DNA of 64,000 nt from Thermoanaerobaculia bacterium (GTDB lineage Bacteria > Acidobacteriota > Thermoanaerobaculia > Thermoanaerobaculales > Sulfomarinibacteraceae). The notes beneath the pieces were generated by a model. It searched no databases. It worked only from the letters and a program-made list of their open reading frames with translations, and was not told the DNA's origin. Below, piece after piece: positions 2,854 to 46,976 of this stretch. The stretch is from positions 128,042-192,041 of the forward strand of contig JAMOWA010000018.1 of assembly GCA_027061805.1 (NCBI GenBank), written 5' to 3'. The translations under genes and the position numbers were made by a program. Position 1 is the stretch's first letter, and each line of letters begins with the position of its first letter.

Positions 2854-4094
2854 ACGAGCTGGTCACCCTGGTGGGGATCGACGTGGGCTCGTCCGGTGTC
2901 TCGGTCATCGTGGCCGTGGAGGACGACCAGGGCCGGCTCACCGTCCAGGGATGCGGCCAGGCGGCCCACGACGGCGCCCGGAAGGGCGTGATCTCCGACC
3001 TGGAGCAGGTGTCGTCGGCCGTGCGGCGGGCCGCCGAGGAGGCCGAGGCCATGTCCTCGCTGCCCGTGGAGATTGCCGTGGTTGGGATCGGCGGCACCCC
3101 CATCATGGGGATGCGCTCCACGGCGTCGGTGCCCATCACGGGCCGCGCCCACACCGTCACCGAGGAGGACCGCCGGCGGGCACTCACCGCCTGCGGCCGT
3201 GTGGCCATCCCCGACGACTACCGGGTGCTCGACATCATCCCCTCCGGCTTCGCCGTGGACGGCCAGGGTGGCCTCCAGCGCCCCGTGGGCATGCCCGGGA
3301 GCCGCCTCGACGCCTTCGCCTACGTGCTCTACACCCACATCACCCACGCCGAGACCGTGATCACCGCGGTGAACAGGGCCGCCGTGGAGGTGAGCTCGCT
3401 CGTGTACGAGCCCGTGGCGGCGGCCGAGGCCGTGCTGTCCGACGACGAGCGCGAGCTGGGGTGTCTCCTCCTGGACGTGGGGTACGGCTCCAGCGAGTGG
3501 ATCCTCTTCGCCGATGGTGCCGCGGTGGCCTCCGGTGCCACTCCGGTGGGAGGGCGGGTGTTCACCAGCGACGTGGCGGTGATGGTGAAGACCACCACCA
3601 CGGCGGCGGAACGGGTGAAGCGGGAGGTGGGCGCCGCCGAGGTCCGGCCCGGTGCACAGGGTGGCGGCGTGGAGGTCCCCGCCCTGGGCGACGAGGGCCA
3701 CCACCTGGTGGAACGGGCCTGGGTGGCGCAGATCCTCCGCGACCGGGCCCGGGACCTGTTCGTCAGGGTGCACCGGACGCTCGCCGACGAGGGGCTGGAG
3801 AAGGTGCCCCGCGCCGGCGTGGTGCTCACGGGCGGGGGCTCGCGCCTTGAGGGTATTGAGGAGATTGCACAGGAGATCTTCGGGCTGCGCGTGCGCACCG
3901 GTGCGCCGCGCGCCCTGGCCGGGCTCGTGGAGCCCGTTTCGGGCCCGGAGTGGTCGGTGGCCTGGGGGCTCGTCCTCCAGGAGCACCGGAAACGCCGGGA
4001 AGGTACCGTCATGGGTCCCGAAAACCAGCAGGGTATCGTAGGCTGGTTACGGAGGGCCCTCGGAGAGTTCTTCGAGATAGGAGGTGGATCGTGA
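2850..4094 (+). CDS. ftsA: cell division protein FtsA
   Basis: ATG at 2850 overlaps the ftsQ stop. Actin-like ATPase motifs [21 protein letters not shown] and [12 protein letters not shown]. Confidence 0.9.
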
Positions 4095-5290
4095 TCGAGT
4101 TCGACAGGAGAGCGACCAGGGGCGAGGAGGAGTCCGGCGCGGCCGAGGACCAGGGGATGATCCTCCTGGATGACATGACCTCGCCGGCCTGTATCAAGGT
4201 GATCGGCGTGGGTGGCGGAGGCTGCAACTCCATCGACCGCATGATGGCTGCGGGCCTCGGCGGCGTGGAGTTCATCGCCGCCAACACCGACGCCCAGGCG
4301 CTGGGACGGTGCACGGCACCGGTGAAGCTCCAGCTGGGCCCCGAGCTGACCAGGGGCCTGGGAGCCGGGGCGAACCCGGAGGTGGGGCGGAACGCCGCCC
4401 TGGAGGAGACCGGCCGCATCTACGACGTGCTCACGGGTGCGGACATGGTCTTCATCACCTGCGGCATGGGCGGGGGGACCGGGACCGGGGCCGCTCCGGT
4501 GATCGCCCAGATCGCCGCCGAGGTGGACGCCCTGACCGTGGCCGTGGTCACCAAGCCGTTCAGCTTCGAGGGGTCCCGCCGCCGCACCGTGGCCGAGCAA
4601 GGCATCACAGCGCTGGCCGAGCACGTGGACACCCTCATCACCATCCCCAACGACCGGCTGCTGAAGTTCGTGGACCGGACCACCAACTTCACCGAGGCCA
4701 TGCGCATCGCCGACGACGTGCTGCGCCAGGCGGTCCAGGGCATCGCCGACATCATCACGGTGCCCGGCCTGATCAACCGGGACTTCGCCGACGTGAAGAC
4801 GGTGATGAAGGGCATGGGCCACGCCATCATGGGCATCGGCACCGCCTCCGGCGAGCACCGGGCCGTGGAGGCGGCCCAGCAGGCCATCGCCTCGCCCCTC
4901 CTGGAGGAGACCTCCATCCAGGGTGCCCGCGGCGTGCTCATCAACATCACCGGCGGCGAGGAGATCACCCTCACCGAGATCAACGAGGCCGCCGAGATCA
5001 TCACCGAGGGCACCGACCCCAACGCCCAGATCCTCTTCGGCGCGGTGGTCGATCCCAACCTGGACCAGGAGATCAAGGTGACGGTCATCGCCACCGGCTT
5101 CACCACGGAGCAGGAGGGGTCGCAGATCCCCATCGAGGCCCCGGACCTGGGCGCCACGTCGGCCGAGCCGACGGAGCGCACGAGCTCCCGCAGCCGGTTC
5201 TTCGTGCCCGGCGGGCCCAACCCCGAGTACGGCATCAACGTGAGCGACGAGTACGAGATCCCCGCGATCCTGCGGAAGCAGATGGACTGA
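4091..5290 (+). CDS. ftsZ: cell division GTPase FtsZ
   Basis: GTG at 4091 overlaps the ftsA stop and follows GGAGGTGG; ATG 4157 is an alternative start. Tubulin signature [13 protein letters not shown], plus NTDAQAL. Confidence 0.93.
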
Positions 5291-5493
5291 GGGGGCGCCC
5301 GGCACCCGCCGGGCCTCCCGGGAGGAACGCCATGCCACGAACCGCGTCCACGCAGCGACGGGCCACGGGAGGGGCGGGGGTGACCCGCTGCCCCGGCCCG
5401 TACCGCGGCGTGGTGCGGTGCGCACCATTCCCTCACCCTCCGGCCGAAGGGAGCCACCTCTGACGGAACGCTGAGGGAACCGTTCTTCCATCC

Positions 5494-5543
5494 GGCGCCA
5501 GGACCGCCGATCCACCTCCCGGCGGCTCCGGCGCCACTTTTTT
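5494..5543 (+). terminator. rho-independent terminator, about 200 nt downstream of the ftsZ stop
   Basis: GGCGCC-agga-CCGCCG / loop atccacctcc / CGGCGG-ctcc-GGCGCC gives a stem of about 16 bp. It is followed by A-CTTTTTTG, the only T6 run after a GC stem in the window. Confidence 0.65.
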
Positions 5544-5547
5544 GTCG

Positions 5548-5721
5548 CCCGGGGCGTGGGGAGGGATCTGCTGCGCGGCGCGATCTCCCCGCCAGGGCCT
5601 TGCTCTTCGCTCTTCGGAGCCTGCGACGTACCCGGGGTACGCCTCGGCTCCTCATCGCTCGAGCTGGCAGCCCTGACGGGAACCTCCCACCGCTCGCGAC
5701 GATCCCTCCCCACCTCCCGGG
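5548..5721. repeat. long-stem hairpin element copy 1 (174 nt)
   Basis: cccggggcgtggggagggatc (5548-5568) pairs with gatccctccccacctcccggg (5701-5721): 21 bp with 1 mismatch and 1 G-T. Internal blocks tgctgcgcgGcgcgat, tgcgacgtaCccgggGtacgcctc and cgctcgcgac are shared with copy 2. Confidence 0.6.
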
Positions 5722-5852
5722 CTCCCATGGAACGCCGGAATGAGGGGGTCGCCCCCCTGGTCTCTCCCAGCGTCCGGGAGCCCCGGACGGCTTCGTCGCG
5801 AACGGCGCGGGATGCCGGGCATGGTGGCGTGCTCGCACCCTCAATTCCCATG

Positions 5853-6032
5853 CGTCCGGGACGGGCGGGAACTCCGTCGCGAGCGCAGCGAGACGGTGCC
5901 GGATTTGCCGGCCCACGCCGGCCGAGCGAGTGAGGCGTAGCCCGGCTACGTCGCAGCGAGCGAGGCCAAGGGGGCCGCAAAGACGGTGCCGTATCGCGGC
6001 GCGCAGCAGGAGGCTCCCGCCCGTCCCGGACG
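5853..6032. repeat. long-stem hairpin element copy 2 (180 nt), inverted relative to copy 1
   Basis: An 18 bp perfect inverted repeat (5853-5870 / 6015-6032) extends to about 23 bp. Read on the minus strand it has the same 53/24/56-nt block spacing and the same three conserved blocks as copy 1. Confidence 0.6.
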
Positions 6033-6036
6033 CCAA

Positions 6037-6164
6037 GGAGCCCGCCATGGAGCCCAGGCGACCTGCGGCACTCGCCGTGATCCTCCTGAGTGCTGCTCCC
6101 TTCCGGGCCTGACACGGTTCGGAGGGCGGCGATGCACAGGGCCCGGACTCCATGCCGGGCTCCC
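6037..6164 (-). ncRNA. ffs: signal recognition particle RNA (small 4.5S type)
   Basis: The minus strand reads GUGUCAGGCCC-GGAA-GGGAGCAGCAC, i.e. the domain IV consensus UCAGGyCC GGAA GGrAGCAGC. Flanks fold into one long hairpin (CCUCCGA/UC-A-GGAGG, UCGCCG/CGGCGA, and a terminal stem of about 23 bp with G-U pairs). Ends are approximate. Confidence 0.8.
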
Positions 6165-6198: not shown

Positions 6199-6288
<90 letters not shown>

Positions 6289-6303: not shown

Positions 6304-6393
6304 TGGCGGAGAGGGTGGGATTCGAACCCACGGACCTCGTGAAAGGTCAACGGTTTTCGAGACCGCCCCGTTCGACCACTCCGGCACCTCTCC
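6304..6393 (-). tRNA. tRNA-Ser (anticodon CGA)
   Basis: 90 nt: GGAGAGG...CCUCUCCGCCA acceptor. Anticodon loop CUCGAAA. Long variable arm. T-arm GUGGGUUCGAAUCCCAC. Confidence 0.9.
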
Positions 6394-6943: not shown

Positions 6944-8812
6944 ATGCGCCGTCTCTCCCGCACCCTCGCCGCCGCCCTGCTCCTTCCACTCGCCCTCCTC
7001 CCCGGGTGCCGCTCGGGAGGGCCCGAGGAGGCCGCAGTGCGGCACGCCCGGCGGGTGGTGCTGGTCTCCTACGACGGGGTGGGGGCGGACCTGGCGTGGA
7101 GCTGGCTCGAGGAGGGTGTTCTCTCCGAGCCCGGTGGCGTGGCCGGCATGGCTGCCGCGGGCACCTCGGCCCGGCGGGTCCGCATGGTGAACCCGACGCT
7201 CACCTCGGTGAACCACATCTCCCTGGCCACCGGCGCGCAGCCCGGCTCCACGGGCATCGTCAGCAACTACTTCCACCGGCCCGGACAGAAGATCACCAAC
7301 GGCGTCTCGGGCTTTTCCGCCTCCATCGGGGTCGAGACACTCTGGGAGGCCGTCCGCCGCCAGGGCCGGCGGGTGGGGGTGCTCACCTGGCCCGGCGCCG
7401 ACGGAGCGAACGAACGGCGGCGGGGGGACTTCGGGCTGATCTGGCCCGCCCGCCCCCTGGCGCGTTCGGAAATCCTCGTGCTCGATCCCCACGAGGCCGG
7501 GCACGGCGCGGTGCTGCCCTCCCACGACGAGCTCCCCCCGCTGGTCTGGACGGTCACCCTCCAGCTCGGCGGGGCCGAGCCCGCCGGTGCCCCGTTCACG
7601 GTGACGGTGGTGGACGGCAACCCCGACGGGGTCCGGGCCTACGACACGGTGGCGGTGACACCCCCCGGCGAGGCGTCGCCGACGATCCTCGGCCGGAACG
7701 GTTGGTTCCCCGTGAGCGTCCGGGCCACCGCACCGGGGGACGAGCGTCCCCACCCCTGGGGCGCCTGGTGCAAGGTGCTCCACCTCGACACCCACGCGGG
7801 GACGGTGCGGCTCTACCGGGGCGAGGTCCACCGCGTGCGGGCCTACCCGGACGCCTTCGAACGCCGCCTCGAGGAGGCGGTGGGTTTCTGGCCGGGACCC
7901 CCGGACCGCCACGGGCTCGGAGCGTGGTGGCTGGACGTGACCCGCGGCGTGGACCTGGACACCTTCCTGGAGCAGCTGGAACGGCTGGACCGGTACCTGG
8001 ACCGCGTGGCGGCCTTCGTGGTGGCCAACGAGGACTTCGACCTGCTCATGGCCTACCACCCCACCCCGGACGAGTACGAGCACATCGGCCTCATCGTGGA
8101 CCAGCGCCAGTGGGCCTGGAGCCCGGGCACGGCCCTGGCCGCCGCCGAGGGGCTCCGGCGGGTGGGGCGCTCCCTCGATCGCTCGGTGGCCTCGCTGTGG
8201 CAGGCGCTCGACCCGGAGAGGGACGCCCTGGTGGTGGTCTCGGACCACGGCCTGGTCCCCCTCCACGACGTGGTGAACGTGAACACGGTCCTCGCCGGGG
8301 CGGGCCTCGTGAAGGTGGACGATGGCGGAAAGCGGCCGCGGGCGGCGGCGGACACCCCCATGCTGGCCTTCGCCTCCGGGGGCTGTGCCCACCTCTACCT
8401 GAACCTGGAGGGCCGGGAGCCGGGCGGCGTGGTCCGGCCGGAGGAGGCGCCGGAGCTCCTCCGGCGGGCCGCGAAGGCCCTGGCCGACGTGGTGGTGGAC
8501 GGGGAGCCCGCCATCGAGAGGATCTTCACCCGGGACCAGGCGGTGGAGATCGGGCTCGGCAGCCCCAACGCAGGGGACCTGGTGGTCTTCGCCAGGCCCG
8601 GCTGGACCCTCTCCGGCCGGCTGGGCGGCAAGGCCGTGGAGCCCAGCCGCTACTATGGCCAGCACGGGTACCTGAACACCCACGACGCGCTCTGCGGCAT
8701 CCTCTTCGCCCGGGGAACGGGGGTCCTCCACCGGGAGCTGGGGGAGGTCCCGGCCACCTCCATCGCGCCCATGGTGGCCCACTGGCTCGGCATCGCCCCT
8801 CCGGGCCACTGA
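6944..8812 (+). CDS. lipoprotein of the alkaline phosphatase / nucleotide pyrophosphatase-phosphodiesterase family
   Basis: Lipobox LLPGC. VVLVSYDGVG and NPTLTSVNHISLATGAQPGSTGIVSNYF resemble the type I phosphodiesterase metal/nucleophile region. YGQHGY lies near the C-terminus. Confidence 0.75.
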   Translation: MRRLSRTLAAALLLPLALLPGCRSGGPEEAAVRHARRVVLVSYDGVGADLAWSWLEEGVLSEPGGVAGMAAAGTSARRVRMVNPTLTSVNHISLATGAQPGSTGIVSNYFHRPGQKITNGVSGFSASIGVETLWEAVRRQGRRVGVLTWPGADGANERRRGDFGLIWPARPLARSEILVLDPHEAGHGAVLPSHDELPPLVWTVTLQLGGAEPAGAPFTVTVVDGNPDGVRAYDTVAVTPPGEASPTILGRNGWFPVSVRATAPGDERPHPWGAWCKVLHLDTHAGTVRLYRGEVHRVRAYPDAFERRLEEAVGFWPGPPDRHGLGAWWLDVTRGVDLDTFLEQLERLDRYLDRVAAFVVANEDFDLLMAYHPTPDEYEHIGLIVDQRQWAWSPGTALAAAEGLRRVGRSLDRSVASLWQALDPERDALVVVSDHGLVPLHDVVNVNTVLAGAGLVKVDDGGKRPRAAADTPMLAFASGGCAHLYLNLEGREPGGVVRPEEAPELLRRAAKALADVVVDGEPAIERIFTRDQAVEIGLGSPNAGDLVVFARPGWTLSGRLGGKAVEPSRYYGQHGYLNTHDALCGILFARGTGVLHRELGEVPATSIAPMVAHWLGIAPPGH

Positions 8813-8907: not shown

Positions 8908-10233
8908 ATGCCACACGTGCGGAGAGGCCTCGCGGCCGCGTTCCTCGGGCTGCTGCTGGTCGCAGCCGGATCGGGCCTGGCCCGGGAGAGGGCCCCCATG
9001 GACCCGCTGCTGCGCCTGCTGGTGCGGAAGGGGGTGATCACCCAGGAGGAGGCCGTGGCGCTGCAGGCCGAGTACGAGGCCGCAAAGCACGCTGCCACCG
9101 AATCCGCACGCGGCTCCGGGACCACCGCCCCCGCTCCGGTGGCAGCGCCGGCACCGGCACCGGCACCGGCAGAGAAGGCTTCCTGGACCGATCGCTTCAC
9201 GGTCAAGGGCGACCTGCGGCTCCGGTACGAGGGGTTCTCCAAGGAGGGTGCCTACGACGGCGACCGCCGGGACCGCTTCAGGATCCGGCTCCGCGCCGGG
9301 TTCACGGCCACGGTCACCGACTGGATGCTCGTTGGCCTCCAGCTCCGCAACGGGGATCCCGCCGACCCCGTCTCCAACAACACCAGCTTCGACGGGGCGT
9401 TCCAGTTCAAGGATTTCAACCTGGCCGAGGGGTACCTCCAGATCCGCCTCTCCAGGGGGTTCGGCCTCGTGGCGGGCAAGTTCGACGCGAAGAAGTGGTG
9501 GACCGTCACGGACATGCAGTGGGACGACGACGTCACGGTGGAGGGGATCATGACCGACGTGGACCTCCTCCGCGGTGATGGGGCCTTCCGGAAGCTGGAC
9601 CTGGTGGCCTACGGCTTCCTGCTGGAGGAGCTCAAGGGTGGCCCCGACGCCAACCTCTACGGCGGCCAGCTCCGCACGGCCTTCGCGCTCGGCGGGCACA
9701 ACACCGTCCACGCCGGTGCGGGCTTCGACTGGTGGGACAACCCCCGGCAGGTGGCGGACCTGACCCTCTCCGGCACGATCAGGGGCAACCCCGTCACGAA
9801 TCTCCTCGATGAGAACGACCGGCTCGTCAGCGACTTCGAGATCCTCAACCTCTTCGTCACCTGGACCAACTCGGCGAGCGCCACGTGGCCCGTGAAGCTC
9901 AGGCTCTTCTACTACAGGAACACCGGCGCGAAGGGCCCCGGAGCCGATCAGGACACGGCCTTCTTCGGCCGGATCCAGGTGGGTGATTCCACGAAGAAGG
10001 GCCAGGTGGCATTCCGGTACTCCTACTACGACTCGGAGCCGGATGCCCTCTTCTACGTCTTCACCCAGTCGGACACCGGCCGCGGCTCCGACGTGAAGGC
10101 CCACCGCCTGGACCTGCGGATCGGCGCCTGGGCGAGGAGCTACTTCAATCTCACCTGGTACAACACCCGCCCGCGGTACCGGGAGGACACCACGCTGAAC
10201 CGCTGGCAGGTGGACTACATCGTCAGGTTCTGA
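8908..10233 (+). CDS. putative outer-membrane beta-barrel porin (OprO/P-like)
   Basis: ATG 8908 after GGAGGGAGG. Signal peptide, N-terminal helical region (LLRLLVRKGVITQEEAVALQAEYEAAK), alternating beta-strand pattern, and C-terminal ...VDYIVRF. Confidence 0.6.
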   Translation: MPHVRRGLAAAFLGLLLVAAGSGLARERAPMDPLLRLLVRKGVITQEEAVALQAEYEAAKHAATESARGSGTTAPAPVAAPAPAPAPAEKASWTDRFTVKGDLRLRYEGFSKEGAYDGDRRDRFRIRLRAGFTATVTDWMLVGLQLRNGDPADPVSNNTSFDGAFQFKDFNLAEGYLQIRLSRGFGLVAGKFDAKKWWTVTDMQWDDDVTVEGIMTDVDLLRGDGAFRKLDLVAYGFLLEELKGGPDANLYGGQLRTAFALGGHNTVHAGAGFDWWDNPRQVADLTLSGTIRGNPVTNLLDENDRLVSDFEILNLFVTWTNSASATWPVKLRLFYYRNTGAKGPGADQDTAFFGRIQVGDSTKKGQVAFRYSYYDSEPDALFYVFTQSDTGRGSDVKAHRLDLRIGAWARSYFNLTWYNTRPRYREDTTLNRWQVDYIVRF

Positions 10234-11237: not shown

Positions 11238-11485
11238 TCCGCAACCTGTTCGTGGTGGTGGCCGCATCCCTGCTGCTCCTGGTGGCGGTGGTGATGTCCA
11301 CCGCCGGGCATGGCCCCCGGGCGGTGGCCGGCGGGGTGCTGCTGTGGGCGCCGGGCATCGGCCTGGCCATCGTCAGGCACCTGGTCCAGCGGCTGGGGGG
11401 CACCGTGGACCTGGACTCGCGGGAGGGTGTGGGCACCCGGGCCCGGGTGGCCCTCCCCACGCCCAAGGGCGGGGACCCTCCTTGA
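11234..11485 (+). pseudogene. remnant of the cognate sensor histidine kinase (internal deletion)
   Basis: ATG overlaps the regulator stop (ATGA). The 83-aa product is one TM helix joined directly to the extreme C-terminus of an HATPase_c domain (GIGLAIVRHLVQRLGGTVDLDSREGVGTRARVALP). HisKA and most of the ATPase domain are absent. Confidence 0.55.
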
Positions 11486-11561
11486 GGCCATGGCCCGCCG
11501 CGGGATATCCTTCCTCCTGGCACCGTGACGGCGGGCCGGCCGTCACAGATGCGGGAGGACG

Positions 11562-13658
11562 ATGAGCCGGGACGAGGAACTCCGCTTCGAACCGGGCGGC
11601 GAGCGGCCCGCCGCCCTCGAGCCGCGGGAGTGGCTCCTCCTCGGCCTGGTGATGGCCTTCTACCTGGCCACCAGGCTGTGGAGGATCGAGCACTTCCCGG
11701 TGAGCTTCCTCTGCGACGAGGCCATCCAGCCGGTGCTGGCCCGCGACCTGGTGACCCACCACTTCCGGGATGCGGGGGGGACCCTGCTCCCGGCCTACTT
11801 CAAGAACTTCTTCAAGTGGAGCCTCGGCCTGTCGGTCTACCTCCATGCGGTGACCGTCTCACTCTTCGGCACGTCGGTCCTCGTGACCCGGGCCACCTCT
11901 GTGGCCGTGGGCGCCCTGGCACCCGCCGCCGTCGCGCTCACCCTCAGGGTGGTGTTCCGCTCCGCGCTCTGGTGGTCGGCCCCCCTGGTCATGGGCCTCC
12001 TCCCCGTGTGGTTCCTGCACTCGAGGATGGCCTACGAGGCCGTGATGGCCACGGGTTTCTGGGCGGTGTTCCTCCTGGCCTACCTGCTCTACAGGCTCGG
12101 CTCGCCGCGGTGGCTCCCCCTGGTGGTGGCCTCGGGCGCCGCCACGTTCGCCACCTACACCAACGGGCAGGGCCTCGTGGCGTTCTGCGGCCTCGTGCTC
12201 GCCGTGGTGGACTGGCGGTACCACCTGGGGGTCCTCCGGGAGCACCGCCGCGTGGCCGCGGGCGCGGTCCTGCTCGCGCTGGTGCTGGCCGTGCCCTACC
12301 TCCGCTTCCGCCTCGTCGACCACCCCGAGGCCTTCGAGGGCATGCTCCGGGACGTGCACTCCTACTGGATCGACGACATTCCGCTCGGGGAGAAGCTCCA
12401 CCGGTACACCGCCAACTACCTGGAGGCCCTGGGGCCCCGGTACTGGTTCGTGGACGACCCCGACCGCCTGCCACGCCACCGGATCCCCGGGTCGGGGCAT
12501 CTCCCCCTGTGGCTGGCGCCACTCGTGGCACTGGGCCTGGGGCTCTGCGCCTGGCGCTGGAGGTCGCCTCCCCACAGGACCGTCCTGGTGGCCACCCTGG
12601 CAGTCCCCTTCGCTCCCGCCGTCGCGGAGATCACGACGCCCCGCGTCCTGGCCATGGTGGTCCCCGCCACGCTCCTGGCCCTGCTGGGGGCCGACCTGGT
12701 CTGGCGCCATCTCCGCCGGCGGGTTCCGGAGGGCCTCCCCCGCCGGGTGCTGGCCGCGGCAGCCGCCGTGGCCCTGGCCGCGCCCACCGTGGCCCTGGCC
12801 CGCCGGGCCGTCAGGGAGGGCCCCACCTGGTGCTCCGACTACGGCCTGTACGGCCTGCAGTGGGGCGCCCGGGAGGTCTTCGGGGCCATCCGCGAGGAGC
12901 TCGAGGCCCGGCCCCGGGAGCGGATCCTCCTCTCCCACGGCTGGACCAACAACCCCGACGCCTTCGTCCGGTTCTTCCTGGATCCGTCGCTCCAGGGGCG
13001 GGTTCGCCTGGTGGGACCGGGTGACCACCTGCGGGACTTCATCCCCTTCGACAGCGGCGCCGTGTACGTGATCACCGGGGAGGAGTACGGGATGCTCCGG
13101 CGGGACCCCAGGATCGTGTGCTCCCCACCGCGGAGGATCGTCCCCCGCCCGGACGGCCGGCCGGGATTCGTCTTCCTCCACCTGGCCTATGCGCCCGATG
13201 CCCGGGAGATCTTCGCCAGGGAGGAGGCCGAGCGGCGGCGGCCCCGGAGGGACACCGTGACGGTGGGCGGGGAACGCTGGACCGTGGTCCACCCCTCCCT
13301 GGACATGGGCAACGCCGCGGCCCCCTTCGACGGCAACCCCGACACCGTGGCCCGGACCGACCGCACCGACCCCGCCGTCTGGACCATCGAGCTGCCCACC
13401 CCACGGCCTGTTGCGGGGGTTCGCCTGGGGCTGTTCATCAGGGAGTACGACATCCGGCTGGAGGTCCACGGAGAGGACGGGCGGACGGCGGAGGTCCGGC
13501 GATCCTTCCACGATCTGCCGGAGTTCCCCGTGGTCACCCTCCGCCTCCCCGAGGCCGTTCCCGACGCCGTGTGGATCCGCGTGACCATCGACCGGCTGGA
13601 CTGGGACGATCATGTCCACCTCAGGGAGCTGGAGCTCCTGGGACCGGAGGATCCGTGA
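11562..13658 (+). CDS. GT-C fold glycosyltransferase (family 39 / ArnT-PMT-like) with a C-terminal beta-sandwich domain
   Basis: GGGAGGA SD. About 10 TM helices; N-terminal loop FLCDEAIQP is DE-motif-like. The soluble C-terminal region carries FDGNPDT, reminiscent of discoidin domains. Confidence 0.7.
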
Positions 13659-13716: not shown

Positions 13717-15366
<1,650 letters not shown>

Positions 15367-15719
15367 ACGGGACGGAGAAGGAGAGGGTGCACGGCCCGCT
15401 TCCCGGCACGGAAGAGGGACCCGGGACTCCGGCCTCCCCCTCTCCACGCCTCAACCTCGCCATGGAAGCCGCCACCATCGCACTGGCGCCGGCCCGTGCC
15501 GTTCCTCCACCGCTGAGGCCCACTGCCGACCAGCTGATCCGCGCTGTCAGCTTGGTGTCCGCCAACCTCGCCGACGGCCACGGCAGAACCGGAAGAGACC
15601 GTGACCACCACCGGCGCATCGCCTGCGCCTCCGCAAGGGAGGCCGACATCCACCCCCGTCGCCTCCTCCTCGGCGCCGCCCCAACGCCCGTCGGGGCAGG
15701 TCTCCAGCGGGGCCTTCGA

Positions 15720-36035: not shown

Positions 36036-38504
36036 ATGGCTGAAAAGACGTACCGGCTTCCTTTCGACGCCGAGAGCGGACGCTACGAGAAGGAGACCAT
36101 CGTGGCCGACGTGGTCCGGAGGGGGCAGGAGGCGCCCTGTCCCCTGGAGCGGGCCGAGTTCCAGTTCCCGGAGGAGCTCTTCGAGCTCACGGTGGAGTTC
36201 GAGCCGGGCGCCGAGGAGGTCCGGGCGGAGGTGGCGCTCCGGGAGGAGGTCTACGAGGCCAGCGACTTCACCACCCTCGCCGAGAAGGATCACGAGCTCC
36301 TCCTGGAGGTGGTGCCCCGGGAGGGGACCGCGGATGGGGGCTTCAAGCCGGGGCCCGTCCTCAGGAAGTCCTGCCTGGTGCAGTGCGAGCCGGTGCGCCC
36401 CGCCATGGTCCTGAAGGAGCCGAGCGAGGAGGAGCTGCCGCTGCCCGCCGTGGGGGACGAGCAGACCACCTTGGTGCTCCAGGTGACCATGGGTGCCGGA
36501 GGGAGGCCCTGGAAGGGGCTGGAGCTCCGGTGGGAGCGGCTGGAGGGGGGCTGCTCCGTCCACGGCACCCTCGAGGGCGGTTCTGCCGTCACGGACGAGG
36601 CCGGGGAGATCCAGCTGAGCTACACCGCCCCCAGGCTCTGCTACAGGCCGGGGGAGAAGTACTTCGAGGAGTATCGCTTCCTCGGGACCGGTCCCCAGGA
36701 GCAGGAGCTCTTCCGGCTGAAGATCCCCCTGGCACCGCTGATCGTGTACCGGATGAAGGCGGAGAAGGTCCAGGAGCTGAATGACGGGGAATACGGCATC
36801 GAGGGGCCCCCGACCGAGGTGGTGGAGATCGATCCCCGCGACCGGGTGAAGGCCCTCGAGGGCACCTTGCTCCTCACGACCACGATCCGCGGCAGGGAGC
36901 AGCAGGACCCGGTGGCCGACATGGAGTGCTCCATCCTGCTGGGGGACGAGAACGGCGTTCCGGAGGATCAGGAGGGGATCAAGCTCACCACCGATGCCCA
37001 GGGCACGATCCGCTGGGAGGTCCCGGAGCTCGCCGCGGCCTTCGGGAACCGGGGGACCACCCGCCAGCTCTCCACGGAGCGGGGGGAGCTCCCCCGCCTG
37101 GAGCTCACCGAGGCCACACGGAAGGTGCTGGAGTTCTACGAATCGCGGTTCGACCACCAGAGCTTCCCCAGGGGTGTCTTCCAGGGCGGCCTGGAGGAGG
37201 AGCTCCGGTCGTACCGTCTCGTCCACAGCCGGCAGCTGGCCTCACGGGAGACCGCCGCCTACCAGAAGATCCGGGACACCCTGGAGATCCTCTCGATCGG
37301 GACGCGCTACGCGGGGTCCTTCCGCCGGTGCTTCACGGAGCAGTTCTCGCCGCTGCTGGGCGTCCTCGGCGACACCTTCTGGGAATACTTCAACTACATC
37401 TGGAACCTCAAGGACATGGCGGGGAAGATCATCGCCGGGCTGACCGGCGGCGCCTCGGCCATCGCCCGGGCCATCGCCAGCCGCTGCGAGGGCTCCGTCT
37501 CGTTCCTCCGGACCCTCCTGGCGCGGATCCGGCCTCTGCAGTGGGCCATCGACAGGGCCATGGGTTTCTTCGAGTGGCTGGTGACGAAGGTGGAGGGGCT
37601 CGCCGCCTTTGCCGGGAAGCTTGTGGGGAAGCTCCGCCAGACCGCCCTCGACCTGGCGAGGGAGGCCACGGAGCTCGTCGGCCTGATGGACCAGGTGGAA
37701 TCCAGGGGACTGAAGATCCTGGCGGTCCTCGCCGCCGGGATCAAGGGGCTCGTGGCCACCGTGGCACGGGGCATCGGTCACCTGCTCCAGGGGGCGGTGG
37801 GGGTGCTCGAGAGGTTCGCCTTCTGGCTCATGACCAACGCGGTGGTGGGCCTGCGCGTCTTCGAGCGGAGCTTCTTCGAGCACATGGAGGACCACACCGG
37901 CATGGAGGCCATCCACCGGGGGATCCAGTACTTCATGGAGGCCCTGGGGGCGCGCTGGCACGGGAAGCTCGCCGGGGAGGGGATCACGGTCCAGGTCGAG
38001 AACTACCTCCAGAGCCTCCTGGAGACCTTCTTCGGGAAGGGGGGGTGGGTCACCGGAGGGGCCTCCCGGGCGGTGTCGAACTTCGCCTCACTGAACCTCT
38101 TCGATCCGTCGGCCACGGTGGCCGTCCGGAGCCTCCACCGGGCGTGTTCGGACCTCAGGGCGGCCGATGATCCGGAGGAGAAGGTCGCAACCACCAGGGA
38201 GATGGCCTCCAGCGTGGCCCAGACCCAGCTCACCTACGAGAAGTCGTTCATCATGGGCGAGGCCATCAAGATGTTCGTGGACAGCATGAAGATCCCCGTC
38301 CAGGTGGCCCTGGCGGCGGTGGTGACACTGACCACCCTGGGAGGCGGGGCCGTGGCCGTGGGCAGCATCTGCACCAAGATGGAGGTCATCATCTCCACCC
38401 TCGCCATCTGCCTGCTCGACGTGCCCCACGCCGTCACCATCTTCCTGGGGGCCTACCTCATCCAGCAGGCCTACCTGACGGCCGTGGCCAACCTGGAGGC
38501 CTGA
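36036..38504 (+). CDS. 822-aa protein of unknown function: beta-rich N-terminal half, long amphipathic-helical half, C-terminal hydrophobic hairpin
   Basis: AGGAGGATGG context. Codon bias matches neighbouring genes. No signal peptide. I recognise no family motif. Confidence 0.7.
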   Translation: MAEKTYRLPFDAESGRYEKETIVADVVRRGQEAPCPLERAEFQFPEELFELTVEFEPGAEEVRAEVALREEVYEASDFTTLAEKDHELLLEVVPREGTADGGFKPGPVLRKSCLVQCEPVRPAMVLKEPSEEELPLPAVGDEQTTLVLQVTMGAGGRPWKGLELRWERLEGGCSVHGTLEGGSAVTDEAGEIQLSYTAPRLCYRPGEKYFEEYRFLGTGPQEQELFRLKIPLAPLIVYRMKAEKVQELNDGEYGIEGPPTEVVEIDPRDRVKALEGTLLLTTTIRGREQQDPVADMECSILLGDENGVPEDQEGIKLTTDAQGTIRWEVPELAAAFGNRGTTRQLSTERGELPRLELTEATRKVLEFYESRFDHQSFPRGVFQGGLEEELRSYRLVHSRQLASRETAAYQKIRDTLEILSIGTRYAGSFRRCFTEQFSPLLGVLGDTFWEYFNYIWNLKDMAGKIIAGLTGGASAIARAIASRCEGSVSFLRTLLARIRPLQWAIDRAMGFFEWLVTKVEGLAAFAGKLVGKLRQTALDLAREATELVGLMDQVESRGLKILAVLAAGIKGLVATVARGIGHLLQGAVGVLERFAFWLMTNAVVGLRVFERSFFEHMEDHTGMEAIHRGIQYFMEALGARWHGKLAGEGITVQVENYLQSLLETFFGKGGWVTGGASRAVSNFASLNLFDPSATVAVRSLHRACSDLRAADDPEEKVATTREMASSVAQTQLTYEKSFIMGEAIKMFVDSMKIPVQVALAAVVTLTTLGGGAVAVGSICTKMEVIISTLAICLLDVPHAVTIFLGAYLIQQAYLTAVANLEA

Positions 38505-44759: not shown

Positions 44760-46976
44760 TCAGCCCCTCCGGCCCCCGTCCCCCGGCGGCCCCCGCAGGA
44801 TCTCGGGCCGCCGCCGCACCCCATCGGCCACCGCAAGGCCCCGGAACCGCACGGTGACCAGCGGACACTCCCCCTCGTCGCAGGCGAAGTGGGCGGGCTC
44901 CCAGATCTCCTCCAGCGCCGCCGCCACACTGGGGAACAGGTGCCGGGACCCGATGAGCTCGAGCATCCCCGTCCGCTCCAGCACCTGGAGCACGGTGTCG
45001 TTGAGGCCGCTCACCGAGAACTCGTAGCCCGCCTCCCGGAGCCGCTTCACCAGCCGGCGCAGGGCCTCCACCCCCGAGGCGTCGATCTCGTTGATCCCGT
45101 TGCCCACCAGGAGCACGTGCTCCAGGTCCGGCATGGAGGCCACCCGCTCCAGGACCTGGTCCTCCAGGTAGCTCACGTTGGAGAAGAAGAGCGAACCGTT
45201 GAACCGGATCACGGCGATCCGCCGGCACAGCTCCAGCCCGTGGCGGCGGGCGCTTCTGAAGGACCCGTCGGTGTAGAGGGAGAGCAGGTCCACGTCGGGC
45301 TTCATGGTCCGGAACAGGTAGAGGCCCAGCGACAGCGCGACGCCCAGGAAGATCCCCTTCTCCAGGTGGGGCGCCGCCAGCAGGGTCACCACAAAGGTGA
45401 CGCCGGCGATGAGGCCGTCGTGGGGCTGGGCCTGCCAGGCGTGGACCAGCGCCCGGAAGTCCACGAGCCCGATGACCGCCAGCATGATGATGGCGGCCAG
45501 AACCGCCTGGGGCAGGTGGTAGAGCAGCGGCGTCAGGAAGAGCAGCGTCACCAGGACCACCACGCTGGAGAACACGTTGGACAGGCCCGTGCGGGCCCCC
45601 GCCTGGAGGTTCACGGCGGAGCGGGAGAACGACCCCGACACGGGGTAGCTGGAGGCGAAGGATCCCACGATGTTGGCCAGTCCCTGCCCGATGAGCTCCT
45701 GGTTGGGGTCGATCCGCTGGCCCGTCCGGGCCGCCATGGCCTTGGCGATGGAGATGGCCTCCATGAAGCCCAGGATGGAGATGATCACCATCATGGGCAG
45801 CAGGGGCACGGCGACGGCCGGATCCACCACGGGGGCCCTCAGGCCGGGGAGGCCGCGGGGGATCGTGCCCACCACGGCGCCGCCGCCCACGAAGACGAGC
45901 CGCCCGGGATCGAGCCGGCCGTTGCCCACCTTCAGGCGCCAGACGGGGCCGCCCGGAGAGGTCCCCTCTCCGGGGAGCGGGCGAAGCTCGAGGCCCCCGC
46001 CGGCGGTCCGGACCCCCATGAACAGGCAGCGCCGGAGCTCCTCCCGGACCCTGGAGGCCTCCTCCCGCGCCACCGCCAGGCGGACCTCCAGGAGCTCGAG
46101 CTCGTGCTTCAACTGCAGGGTGCGGGGGTCCGTGGGCCCCGCCGTCCTTCGGGTCTCACGGTGGCGGGCTGCGGCCTCCCGACGGGCCGCAGCCAGCTCC
46201 TCGAGCCGCTCGCAGGCGGCGTTGTACCTGCGGACGAGCTCCACGGCCCGGGGGGAGGCCACGTGCCCCAGGGTGGTCTCGAGGTTGCGCTCGAAGCCCG
46301 TGGCCCACGAGATCACCGTGGCCAGGACCACGGCGATGAGCACGTTGGGAAGGCGGGGGTTGATCCGGCGCAGGGTCACCATGAGCACCAGCGCGCCCAC
46401 GCCCATGGCCAGGGTGGGCCAGTGGACCCAGTGGAGGGCCGCCCGGCAGACGTTGAGCACCGTCTCGTAGTGGTGCTCCCCCTTCTCGGCGGACACCCCC
46501 AGGAACTTCCCCAGCTGGGAGGAGGCGATGATGAGGGCGGCGGCGTTGGTGAAGCCGTTCACCACGGGGTGGGAGAGCAGGTTGATGATGACGCCCAGCC
46601 GCAGCAGGCCCAGGGCCAGCTGGAACAGCCCCACCATGAGTGCGAGCAGCAGGGCGTAGGCGATGAACTCGGGCCCCCCCGCCGAGGCCAGGGGCTCCAG
46701 GGCCGTGGCGGTCATGAGGGACACCACGGCCACGGGGCCCGTGGCCAGCTGGGCGCTCGAGCCGAAGAGGGCGGCGATCACCGGGGGGATGCACGCGGCG
46801 TAGAGGCCGTAGTAGGCGGGGAGCCCCGCCAGCTGGGCGTAGGCCATGGACTGGGGGATCAGCACCAGGGCCACGGTGAGGCCGGCCAGCAGGTCGGCCC
46901 GGGCCTCGCGCGACCCGTAGCGCCCGAGCTGCGCCGCGATGGGCAGCACCCGCCGCAGGGGAGCGGGGAGCTCCAC
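44760..46976 (-). CDS. SulP-family anion transporter with STAS domain and a large internal insertion
   Basis: LIPQSMAYAQLAGLP, the SulP core and a C-terminal STAS domain (IAVIRFNGSLFFSNV). A coiled-coil-like insert of about 135 aa precedes GTIPRGLPG. Confidence 0.9.
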   Translation of the reverse strand: MELPAPLRRVLPIAAQLGRYGSREARADLLAGLTVALVLIPQSMAYAQLAGLPAYYGLYAACIPPVIAALFGSSAQLATGPVAVVSLMTATALEPLASAGGPEFIAYALLLALMVGLFQLALGLLRLGVIINLLSHPVVNGFTNAAALIIASSQLGKFLGVSAEKGEHHYETVLNVCRAALHWVHWPTLAMGVGALVLMVTLRRINPRLPNVLIAVVLATVISWATGFERNLETTLGHVASPRAVELVRRYNAACERLEELAAARREAAARHRETRRTAGPTDPRTLQLKHELELLEVRLAVAREEASRVREELRRCLFMGVRTAGGGLELRPLPGEGTSPGGPVWRLKVGNGRLDPGRLVFVGGGAVVGTIPRGLPGLRAPVVDPAVAVPLLPMMVIISILGFMEAISIAKAMAARTGQRIDPNQELIGQGLANIVGSFASSYPVSGSFSRSAVNLQAGARTGLSNVFSSVVVLVTLLFLTPLLYHLPQAVLAAIIMLAVIGLVDFRALVHAWQAQPHDGLIAGVTFVVTLLAAPHLEKGIFLGVALSLGLYLFRTMKPDVDLLSLYTDGSFRSARRHGLELCRRIAVIRFNGSLFFSNVSYLEDQVLERVASMPDLEHVLLVGNGINEIDASGVEALRRLVKRLREAGYEFSVSGLNDTVLQVLERTGMLELIGSRHLFPSVAAALEEIWEPAHFACDEGECPLVTVRFRGLAVADGVRRRPEILRGPPGDGGRRG

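Follow-up and report, generated by a model that had tools for sequence, protein, structure and literature searches.

Long hairpin repeats beside ftsZ and ffs belong to a dispersed palindromic family in Acidobacteriota and Methylomirabilota/Rokuibacteriota

Two inverted hairpins between ftsZ and ffs

The DNA analysed here, referred to as the window, is a 64-kb stretch with a G+C content of about 72%. Searches with FtsZ and TadA put it in an uncultured Acidobacteriota lineage, the nearest named hits being MAGs designated "Acidobacteria bacterium" and Thermoanaerobaculales MAGs; its source contig is ENA ERZ27262658 k141_29568. In the window, ftsZ ends at position 5290 and is followed by an intrinsic terminator, while two tRNA-Ser genes and ffs, encoding the small SRP RNA, form a unit on the opposite strand. 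The interval between the terminator and ffs holds two copies of a long hairpin element and a remnant of a third. The features are listed below in window coordinates.

5494-5543, plus strand: intrinsic terminator of ftsZ, with a long G+C hairpin (5494-5535) and a T6 run (5538-5543)
5547-5722, plus strand: copy 1 of the hairpin element, beginning 3-5 nt past the T-run of the ftsZ terminator, in forward orientation on this strand
5568-5584, plus strand: 5' basal block of copy 1, CTGCTGCGCGGCGCGAT, which pairs with 5691-5701 via conserved bulges and one C·U opposition
5621-5645, plus strand: apex of copy 1, CTGCGACGTACCCGGGGTACGCCTC; its mini-hairpin has 6 bp and is flanked by A·C and C·U oppositions that are conserved
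5691-5701, plus strand: 3' basal block of copy 1, CGCTCGCGACG
5770-5812, minus strand: third element in the spacer, of which only part of the 3' half is left (…CGTTCGCGACGAAGCCGTCCGGGGCTCCCGGACGC); it is oriented like copy 2 and was recognised from direct and inverted repeats
5852-6033, minus strand: copy 2 of the hairpin element, beginning 15 nt downstream of the ffs 3' end, in forward orientation on this strand
5876-5886, minus strand: 3' basal block of copy 2, CGCTCGCGACG
5921-5967, plus strand (the complementary strand of copy 2): GAGCGAG direct repeats flanking the apex of copy 2; the tandem oppositions that result are G·A/A·G on this strand and C·U/U·C on the forward one
5932-5956, minus strand: apex of copy 2, CTGCGACGTAGCCGGGCTACGCCTC; the same 25-mer occurs in L004 (a Methylomirabilia MAG) and L005 (a metagenome contig)
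5993-6009, minus strand: 5' basal block of copy 2, CTGCTGCGCGCCGCGAT
6049-6148, minus strand: ffs (small SRP RNA), last gene of the tRNA-Ser/tRNA-Ser/ffs unit
6199-6288, minus strand: tRNA-Ser
6304-6393, minus strand: tRNA-Ser
6436-6408, minus strand: promoter-like site for the tRNA-Ser/tRNA-Ser/ffs unit

A preliminary description of this DNA had reported two homologous inverted hairpins at these places, copy 1 directly after the plus-strand terminator and copy 2 just downstream of ffs, and all of this was confirmed. The copies, each about 180 nt long, have 78% column identity when aligned. Folded as RNA, copy 1 reaches -106.1 kcal/mol (z = -6.35) and copy 2 -121.7 kcal/mol (z = -7.15), with none of 200 shuffles equally good in either case. 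Our covariance model R1 scored the forward strand of copy 1 at 139 bits and that of copy 2 at 150 bits, against 24 and 37 bits for the respective reverse strands. The three blocks singled out in the description are exact in both copies: the 5' basal block CTGCTGCGCGSCGCGAT at 5568-5584(+) and 5993-6009(-), the apex block TGCGACGTASCCGGGSTACGCCTC at 5621/2-5645(+) and 5932-5955/6(-), and the 3' basal block CGCTCGCGACG at 5691-5701(+) and 5876-5886(-). The replacement of a C-G pair by G-C in the mini-hairpin is also real. The difference between the closing stems, said to be complete, was overstated: roughly two thirds of their positions are identical and they have a CCGGG core in common. Wholly unrelated closing stems were found only among more distant members of the family, for example between L009 and L012.

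The apex and the 5' basal block occur twice each in the 64 kb, where the chance expectation for the apex is about zero, and a scan of the window with the full covariance model and filters off returned no third full copy. With the hairpin model, G+C-rich hairpins at 46152-46210, 15362-15458 and 37037-37106 scored 10-15 bits on both strands; these are without the conserved blocks of the family and are probably terminators or unrelated palindromes. The ~200 nt from the ftsZ stop to the terminator (5291-5493) are conserved as DNA in relatives (86% to L008), and blocks such as CTGACGGAACGCTGAGGGAACCGTTCTTCC from this segment reappear in L013 and L023. The same segment has an ORF of 43 aa from position 5332, which was considered and rejected, as the protein is not conserved; the segment may be a conserved 3'-UTR RNA element.

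A dispersed family with variable occupancy

Further copies were sought by two routes. Exact scans with the apex recovered full homologues in L002 (an Acidobacteria MAG) and L005, and shorter variants in L004 and in L001 (a Rokuibacteriota MAG), the latter carrying two within 3.9 kb. The genome contig collection gave four matches, three of them real, and the metagenome contig collection three, of which one was real. The strict apex pattern had no match in the viral contig collection, a looser pattern gave only short local R1 matches there (the one locus inspected, L027, was coding-like), and a plasmid BLAST search did not find the element. The loci of FtsZ and TadA relatives contributed L013, which carries an ortholog of copy 1 (90% identity), L012A, L014, L008-E', a divergent copy in L023, and a derivative in L009-L011 that is 147 nt long and without the apex. 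In total, 11 full or near-full copies at about 10 genomic sites were obtained from Acidobacteriota and Methylomirabilota/Rokuibacteriota MAGs, and the family spans an uncultured Acidobacteriota lineage and these latter phyla. The outcome is a defined repeat family and a usable covariance model for phyla of soil and sediment that have been little studied.

The asymmetric apex hairpin and the bulged basal block are conserved across copies, whereas the arms and the outer stem are variable but self-complementary. The 25-nt apex is identical across two phyla, whereas the arms have diverged beyond simple alignment. In addition to the window copies 3' of ftsZ and ffs, copies were found 3' of rpsA (L002), of a DUF5916 gene (L005), of relA/spoT (L004) and of two methyltransferase genes (L001), between hycI and a phosphodiesterase gene (L023), and within ftsQ (L009-L011). 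The majority lie 1-26 nt past a stop codon or terminator, a location that fits a 3'-UTR role and tolerated insertion sites equally well. Orientation relative to the abutting gene is mixed (five co-directional, three opposite), and the notion that all copies follow the direction of the upstream gene was overturned by the rpsA (L002), L001a and ftsQ copies. No common flanking motif or tetranucleotide was found at the copy sites. Outside the ftsZ/ffs hotspot, the sampled density was roughly one copy per 100 kb (~400 kb of scattered loci). In L023, the divergent copy (7832-8015; apex CTGCCACGTGCCTTCGATCACGCCTC; 56.6 bits) and hycI as annotated overlap at the 3' end of the gene, whose final ~30 codons and stop may come from the element.

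A hairpin element adjoins the ftsZ terminator in the window and in L008, L009, L012, L013 and L014, and its state differs among these relatives. In L008 (98% identity in FtsZ), a different family member stands in place of copy 1 and is followed by the 3' half of copy 1, and on contig L022 of this MAG copy 2 is reduced to a 3'-half fragment behind ffs. Just a 5' piece remains past the ftsZ terminator in L009. Neither window copy is present in L023, where the post-terminator site is empty, and the element is absent from L015-L018. Remnants tend to be 3' halves, of which there are four, with a single 5' half. In the second copy of L012 (11543-11760), an inverted divergent copy is nested at the apex. 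Separately, two copies of AAAGAGTGTCCCTTTTTCGTGT at L012 11950-12060 adjoin a gene for a XerC/D-like tyrosine recombinase (12277-13188), and in L013 the element and half-copy are followed by long low-complexity repeats of CCGG(T/C)(T/C)CCGG type (3020-3380) that run to the contig end.

The copy within ftsQ allows filled and empty sites to be compared. In L009 it lengthens FtsQ by 48 aa in frame, and L012 and L008 have no copy at this site. FtsQ is annotated with 288 aa (L009 7900-8766; also L010 and L011) instead of 239-240 aa because the apex-less 147-nt copy lies in frame after codon ~5; in-frame TTG/GTG codons just downstream of the insertion could serve as alternative starts. Comparison of the filled and empty ftsQ sites revealed no target-site duplication. 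It had also been considered that the outer stems are palindromes already present at the target; at ftsQ this does not hold, as the empty site is free of palindromes. Repeats of this kind break assemblies, mark rearrangement hotspots such as the ftsZ-ffs gap, and can lengthen proteins such as FtsQ.

Covariation and the strand under constraint

Pairing was assessed in eight full-length copies aligned to the covariance model. Changes on both sides were found in 35 of 52 pairs. Standard pairs filled 89.6% of cells, compared to 66.8% after column shuffling and ~42% with slid partners, and none of 500 shuffles reached any of the observed pairing measures; unfitted MAFFT alignments gave the same picture. 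Between L012A and L014, which are 85% identical, eight pairs are doubly compensated, two are changed on one side but kept, and one is broken. Within the mini-hairpin the covariants are GUAGC/GCUAC, GUACC/GGUAC and GUGGC/GCCAC. The earlier observation that structure is kept while sequence diverges therefore holds, and it extends with strong covariation to the relatives. In all, the family occupies multiple sites, varies in occupancy among close relatives, decays to half-copies, contains a nested copy and keeps its pairing by double substitutions.

The preliminary description had read the structure-preserving divergence as pointing to a selected RNA or cruciform structure and away from a MITE. 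Compensatory changes are reported to be common in REPINs as well (PMC3116915), so covariation cannot separate an RNA from mobile hairpin DNA, and the case shows that covariation alone is insufficient to tell RNA genes from mobile DNA of the hairpin type.

A discriminator was found in the mismatches. We aligned the 5' arm of each of the 11 copies against its own 3' arm and counted the oppositions: 655 were Watson-Crick, 32 G·T, 40.5 A·C, 98.5 C·T and 6 A·G. The C·T oppositions are mostly tandem and flanked by G-C pairs, and they occur both at conserved sites (CTCGCTC, in both arms beside the apex) and at copy-specific ones. On the complementary strand the C·T tandems read 5'-CGAG-3'/3'-GAGC-5'. 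In the CGAG/GAGC context, tandem sheared G·A pairs are stable in DNA and RNA alike, and the complementary strand therefore folds more stably, which was the case for 11 of 11 copies with RNA parameters and for 11 of 11 with DNA parameters.

Such a spectrum bears directly on the form in which the element is constrained. A cruciform, or any constraint on double-stranded DNA, is symmetric and cannot yield the bias of C·T over A·G; the cruciform reading is thus excluded by the strand-asymmetric non-Watson-Crick positions. The near balance of G·T and A·C is unlike the wobble tolerance of RNA, for which G·U would be expected far above A·C on its own strand. Taken together, the strand asymmetry and the wobble balance are best fitted by a single-stranded DNA hairpin of one fixed strand, the complementary one. 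We infer that the form under selection would be this hairpin, with its tandem G·A pairs. Hairpins of this sort are what HUH/Y1 enzymes act on. The arm mismatch spectrum offers a cheap discriminator, in which C·T/A·G asymmetry combined with G·T/A·C balance points to single-stranded DNA and not to RNA or cruciform.

The step from hairpin to RNA or cruciform was rejected because the family is dispersed and unstable, with presence/absence differences, remnants, a nested copy and an in-frame copy in ftsQ, because REPINs offer a precedent, and because of the strand asymmetry and the G·T/A·C balance. The sign that had been named for a mobile element, many identical copies with target-site duplications, was not seen literally, as the copies are divergent and no duplications were found.

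Probable mobile hairpin DNA and the alternative readings

In our best reading the family is a dispersed palindromic repeat of REPIN/MITE type that had not been catalogued before, and not a single-copy RNA gene. For copies 1 and 2 in particular, we consider membership in a REPIN-like family of non-autonomous mobile single-stranded DNA hairpins the leading explanation, with a probability of roughly 0.6. The unit would be a non-autonomous element of ~120-185 bp made of one long imperfect palindrome, presumably moved by an enzyme specific for structured single-stranded DNA, most plausibly a HUH/Y1 transposase of RAYT/TIRYT type. From their positions, copies that land just past stop codons or terminators are predicted to be co-transcribed and to form long RNA hairpins; copy 2 may join the 3' end of the tRNA-Ser/ffs transcript, and copy 1 may join read-through from ftsZ. 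It is likely that copies are transcribed as part of the RNAs of adjacent genes, and a role of such copies at the RNA level is possible.

REPINs resemble the element in several respects. They too are non-autonomous single long hairpins, located outside genes and mostly just downstream of coding regions, in which the hairpin is preserved by compensatory change. They decay to singlets or half-copies, form clusters and inverted pairs, leave no target-site duplications and imply recognition of a single strand; moreover, a RAYT-family gene adjoins one cluster of the element (L008). REP dimers also form large hairpins within genes and after coding regions (PMC3733652). The architecture is different. 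In a REPIN, two inverted REPs make up the conserved part, each an imperfect palindrome of 20-40 nt bearing a GTAG or CGTC tag that stays unpaired, and the spacer or loop is variable. In the element the pattern is reversed, with apex and base conserved and the arms variable, and its length is about twice that of a REPIN. GTAG sits within the apex stem (GTAC in copy 1) and is not unpaired, and the arms are not self-folding REPs save by chance in copy 1. Membership among REPINs proper thus fails on architecture, because there is neither a REP doublet nor an unpaired GTAG/CGTC tag. In addition, REPs flank their cognate RAYT while no intact RAYT flanked by copies of the element was found, and REPIN families are usually lineage-specific whereas the apex 25-mer is common to two phyla. 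REPINs also number tens to hundreds in a genome, with an excess outside genes, against the low density of about one copy per 100 kb in the loci sampled here.

ERIC/IRU, the Correia elements of Neisseria and other full-length palindromic MITEs are imperfect palindromes of 100-200 bp that are co-transcribed with their neighbours and form RNA hairpins. All of these have conserved terminal inverted repeats, and Correia also TA duplications, whereas the termini are the most variable part of the element and are without duplication. The test for a classical (DDE-type) MITE fails for the same two reasons. Rickettsia palindromic elements and intragenic REPs insert in frame and keep the reading frame open, like the ftsQ copy in L009 (PMC3733652); here there is a single intragenic case, near the 5' end, where a downstream start could rescue the gene.

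The main rival is a structured RNA family with a benefit for the host, acting either in cis as a hairpin for 3'-end stabilisation, processing or termination, as proposed for REP and ERIC, or as a protein-binding small RNA. We consider it unlikely. Copies do lie directly past stop codons, a terminator or ffs, but with respect to flanking transcription they face either way, those behind rpsA and within ftsQ being antisense. The copy behind the ftsZ terminator persists across relatives with 82-98% FtsZ identity, but copies are lost, replaced or halved in close relatives while the neighbouring genes stay. The interval between ffs and copy 2 has no terminator, so copy 2 is probably transcribed; the element itself is without a promoter-like or terminator-like signal of its own. 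Covariation is strong, but G·U is not above A·C on either strand. A check for a known RNA family, which had been suggested along with the search for further copies, gave nothing in Rfam at gathering scores and only chance-level matches (<= 21 bits) at E <= 10 for positions 5400-6100, which also speaks against this reading. The apex, bulges and internal loops that are kept across phyla remain in its favour: an apex shared between phyla, together with conserved mismatches and bulges, would also fit a host-beneficial function in binding protein or RNA.

It is tempting to speculate that the element belongs to a new class of strand-specific folded modules, characterised by a universal apex of 25 nt, a basal block with bulges, and sheared G·A pairs in tandem. 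Such a module might be kept in Acidobacteriota/Methylomirabilota through a conserved host factor, possibly a domesticated and catalytically dead Y1/DnaA-C protein, and might serve the chromosome at the 3' ends of genes or mark a recombination hotspot, its arms being renewed by a hairpin-templated mechanism that gives instant "compensation". We regard this as improbable.

Little credit can be given to inert palindromic DNA, in which the arms would be matched by template switching or arm-to-arm gene conversion and the copies spread by recombination only, with no selected structure or dedicated mobility. The many transversion flips (GC to CG, UA to AU), the mirrored patches, the few G·U intermediates and a near-perfect stem of ~70 bp in L005 speak for this reading, as does the rearrangement hotspot at the locus. 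However, homogenisation should erase mismatches, and the same bulges and C·T oppositions are found in all copies. New oppositions are almost only C·T on the same strand, which a symmetric DNA process cannot bring about; a neutral palindrome kept by template switching is excluded on this ground, being unable to create strand bias. The ftsQ insertion, at a site free of palindromes, also requires some mechanism of insertion.

ssoA and attC are long strand-specific DNA hairpins with conserved motifs at base and apex, variable arms and extrahelical bases. The CS-6/RSB motifs of ssoA and the R and L boxes of attC are absent from the element, as is any plasmid, phage or integron context. That the copies are folded single-strand recombination sites of the integron attC or Xer/dif kind, capturing DNA between ftsZ and ffs, is very improbable: the conserved extrahelical bases, the strand-specific hairpin, the gene cargo that differs among relatives between ftsZ and ffs, and the tyrosine recombinase nearby in L012 would suit it, but the attC core sites (RYYYAAC … GTTRRRY) are absent from the element ends, which are GC-rich stems of CCGGG type, no IntI or other integrase lies near the window copies, and copies elsewhere are mostly singletons after housekeeping genes, without cassette-like cargo. 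Architecture or context also spoke against each of the other candidates considered, namely 6S RNA, retron msd, attC, sso and bridge RNA, and they were rejected.

To return to the REPIN-like mobile hairpin, a lead on the mobilising enzyme came from L008. The first gene beyond its element cluster (12001-13113) lies 365 nt away, exactly where synteny with the window breaks. It was initially found as a weak match by tblastn with an approximate E. coli RAYT query, and against NCBIfam NF047646 (REP-associated tyrosine transposase) it matches the full profile with E = 1.8e-16 and 60 bits, below the cut-off of 80 bits. The nearest homologues of the protein carry Y1_Tnp (PF01797) and Bac_DnaA_C (PF08299), a layout that corresponds to Y1 subclass 2.1/TIRYT (PMC6006769, PMC3733652). 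Acidobacteria have a TIRYT group of their own (PMC3733652), and the phylum of that group matches that of the element's hosts. The protein encoded beside the L008 cluster shares this domain arrangement (Y1 with a DnaA_C-like tail), a link that comes from a single locus, and it is catalytically degenerate: its HUH motif is lost (DHFH to DEYN), as is the catalytic Tyr. The gene does not have copies of the element on both sides, no transposase linked to the element was found in the window, and no RAYT-like gene either there or at the other loci. The published TIR consensus of TIRYTs, GGGG[AT][CG]A[CG], can be placed in the closing stems only if a mismatch is allowed. We take the gene as a lead on the mobilising enzyme, not as proof of it. 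Confirmation of a Y1 partner would widen the REPIN-like systems by a new architecture and new phyla.

An intact homologue with Y1_Tnp and DnaA_C was seen on L019, an unrelated contig of lower G+C, in a region rich in toxin-antitoxin genes. It is bracketed by direct repeats of ~100 nt (9795-9898 and 11423-11527; 84-90% identical) and by AACCAGATCAAC-type inverted repeats; these flanking repeats are unrelated to the hairpin element, which is absent from that locus. In the MAG of L008, the ftsZ and ffs neighbourhoods are on different contigs (L008 11760-19580; L022 10930-11453). The island between the two positions comprises a leader of lower G+C, the degenerate RAYT-like/DnaA-C gene, B12-binding and SPASM radical-SAM genes, an ABC transporter and a hydrophobic precursor-like peptide of 65 aa, and it looks like a RiPP cluster inserted between the two hairpin elements.
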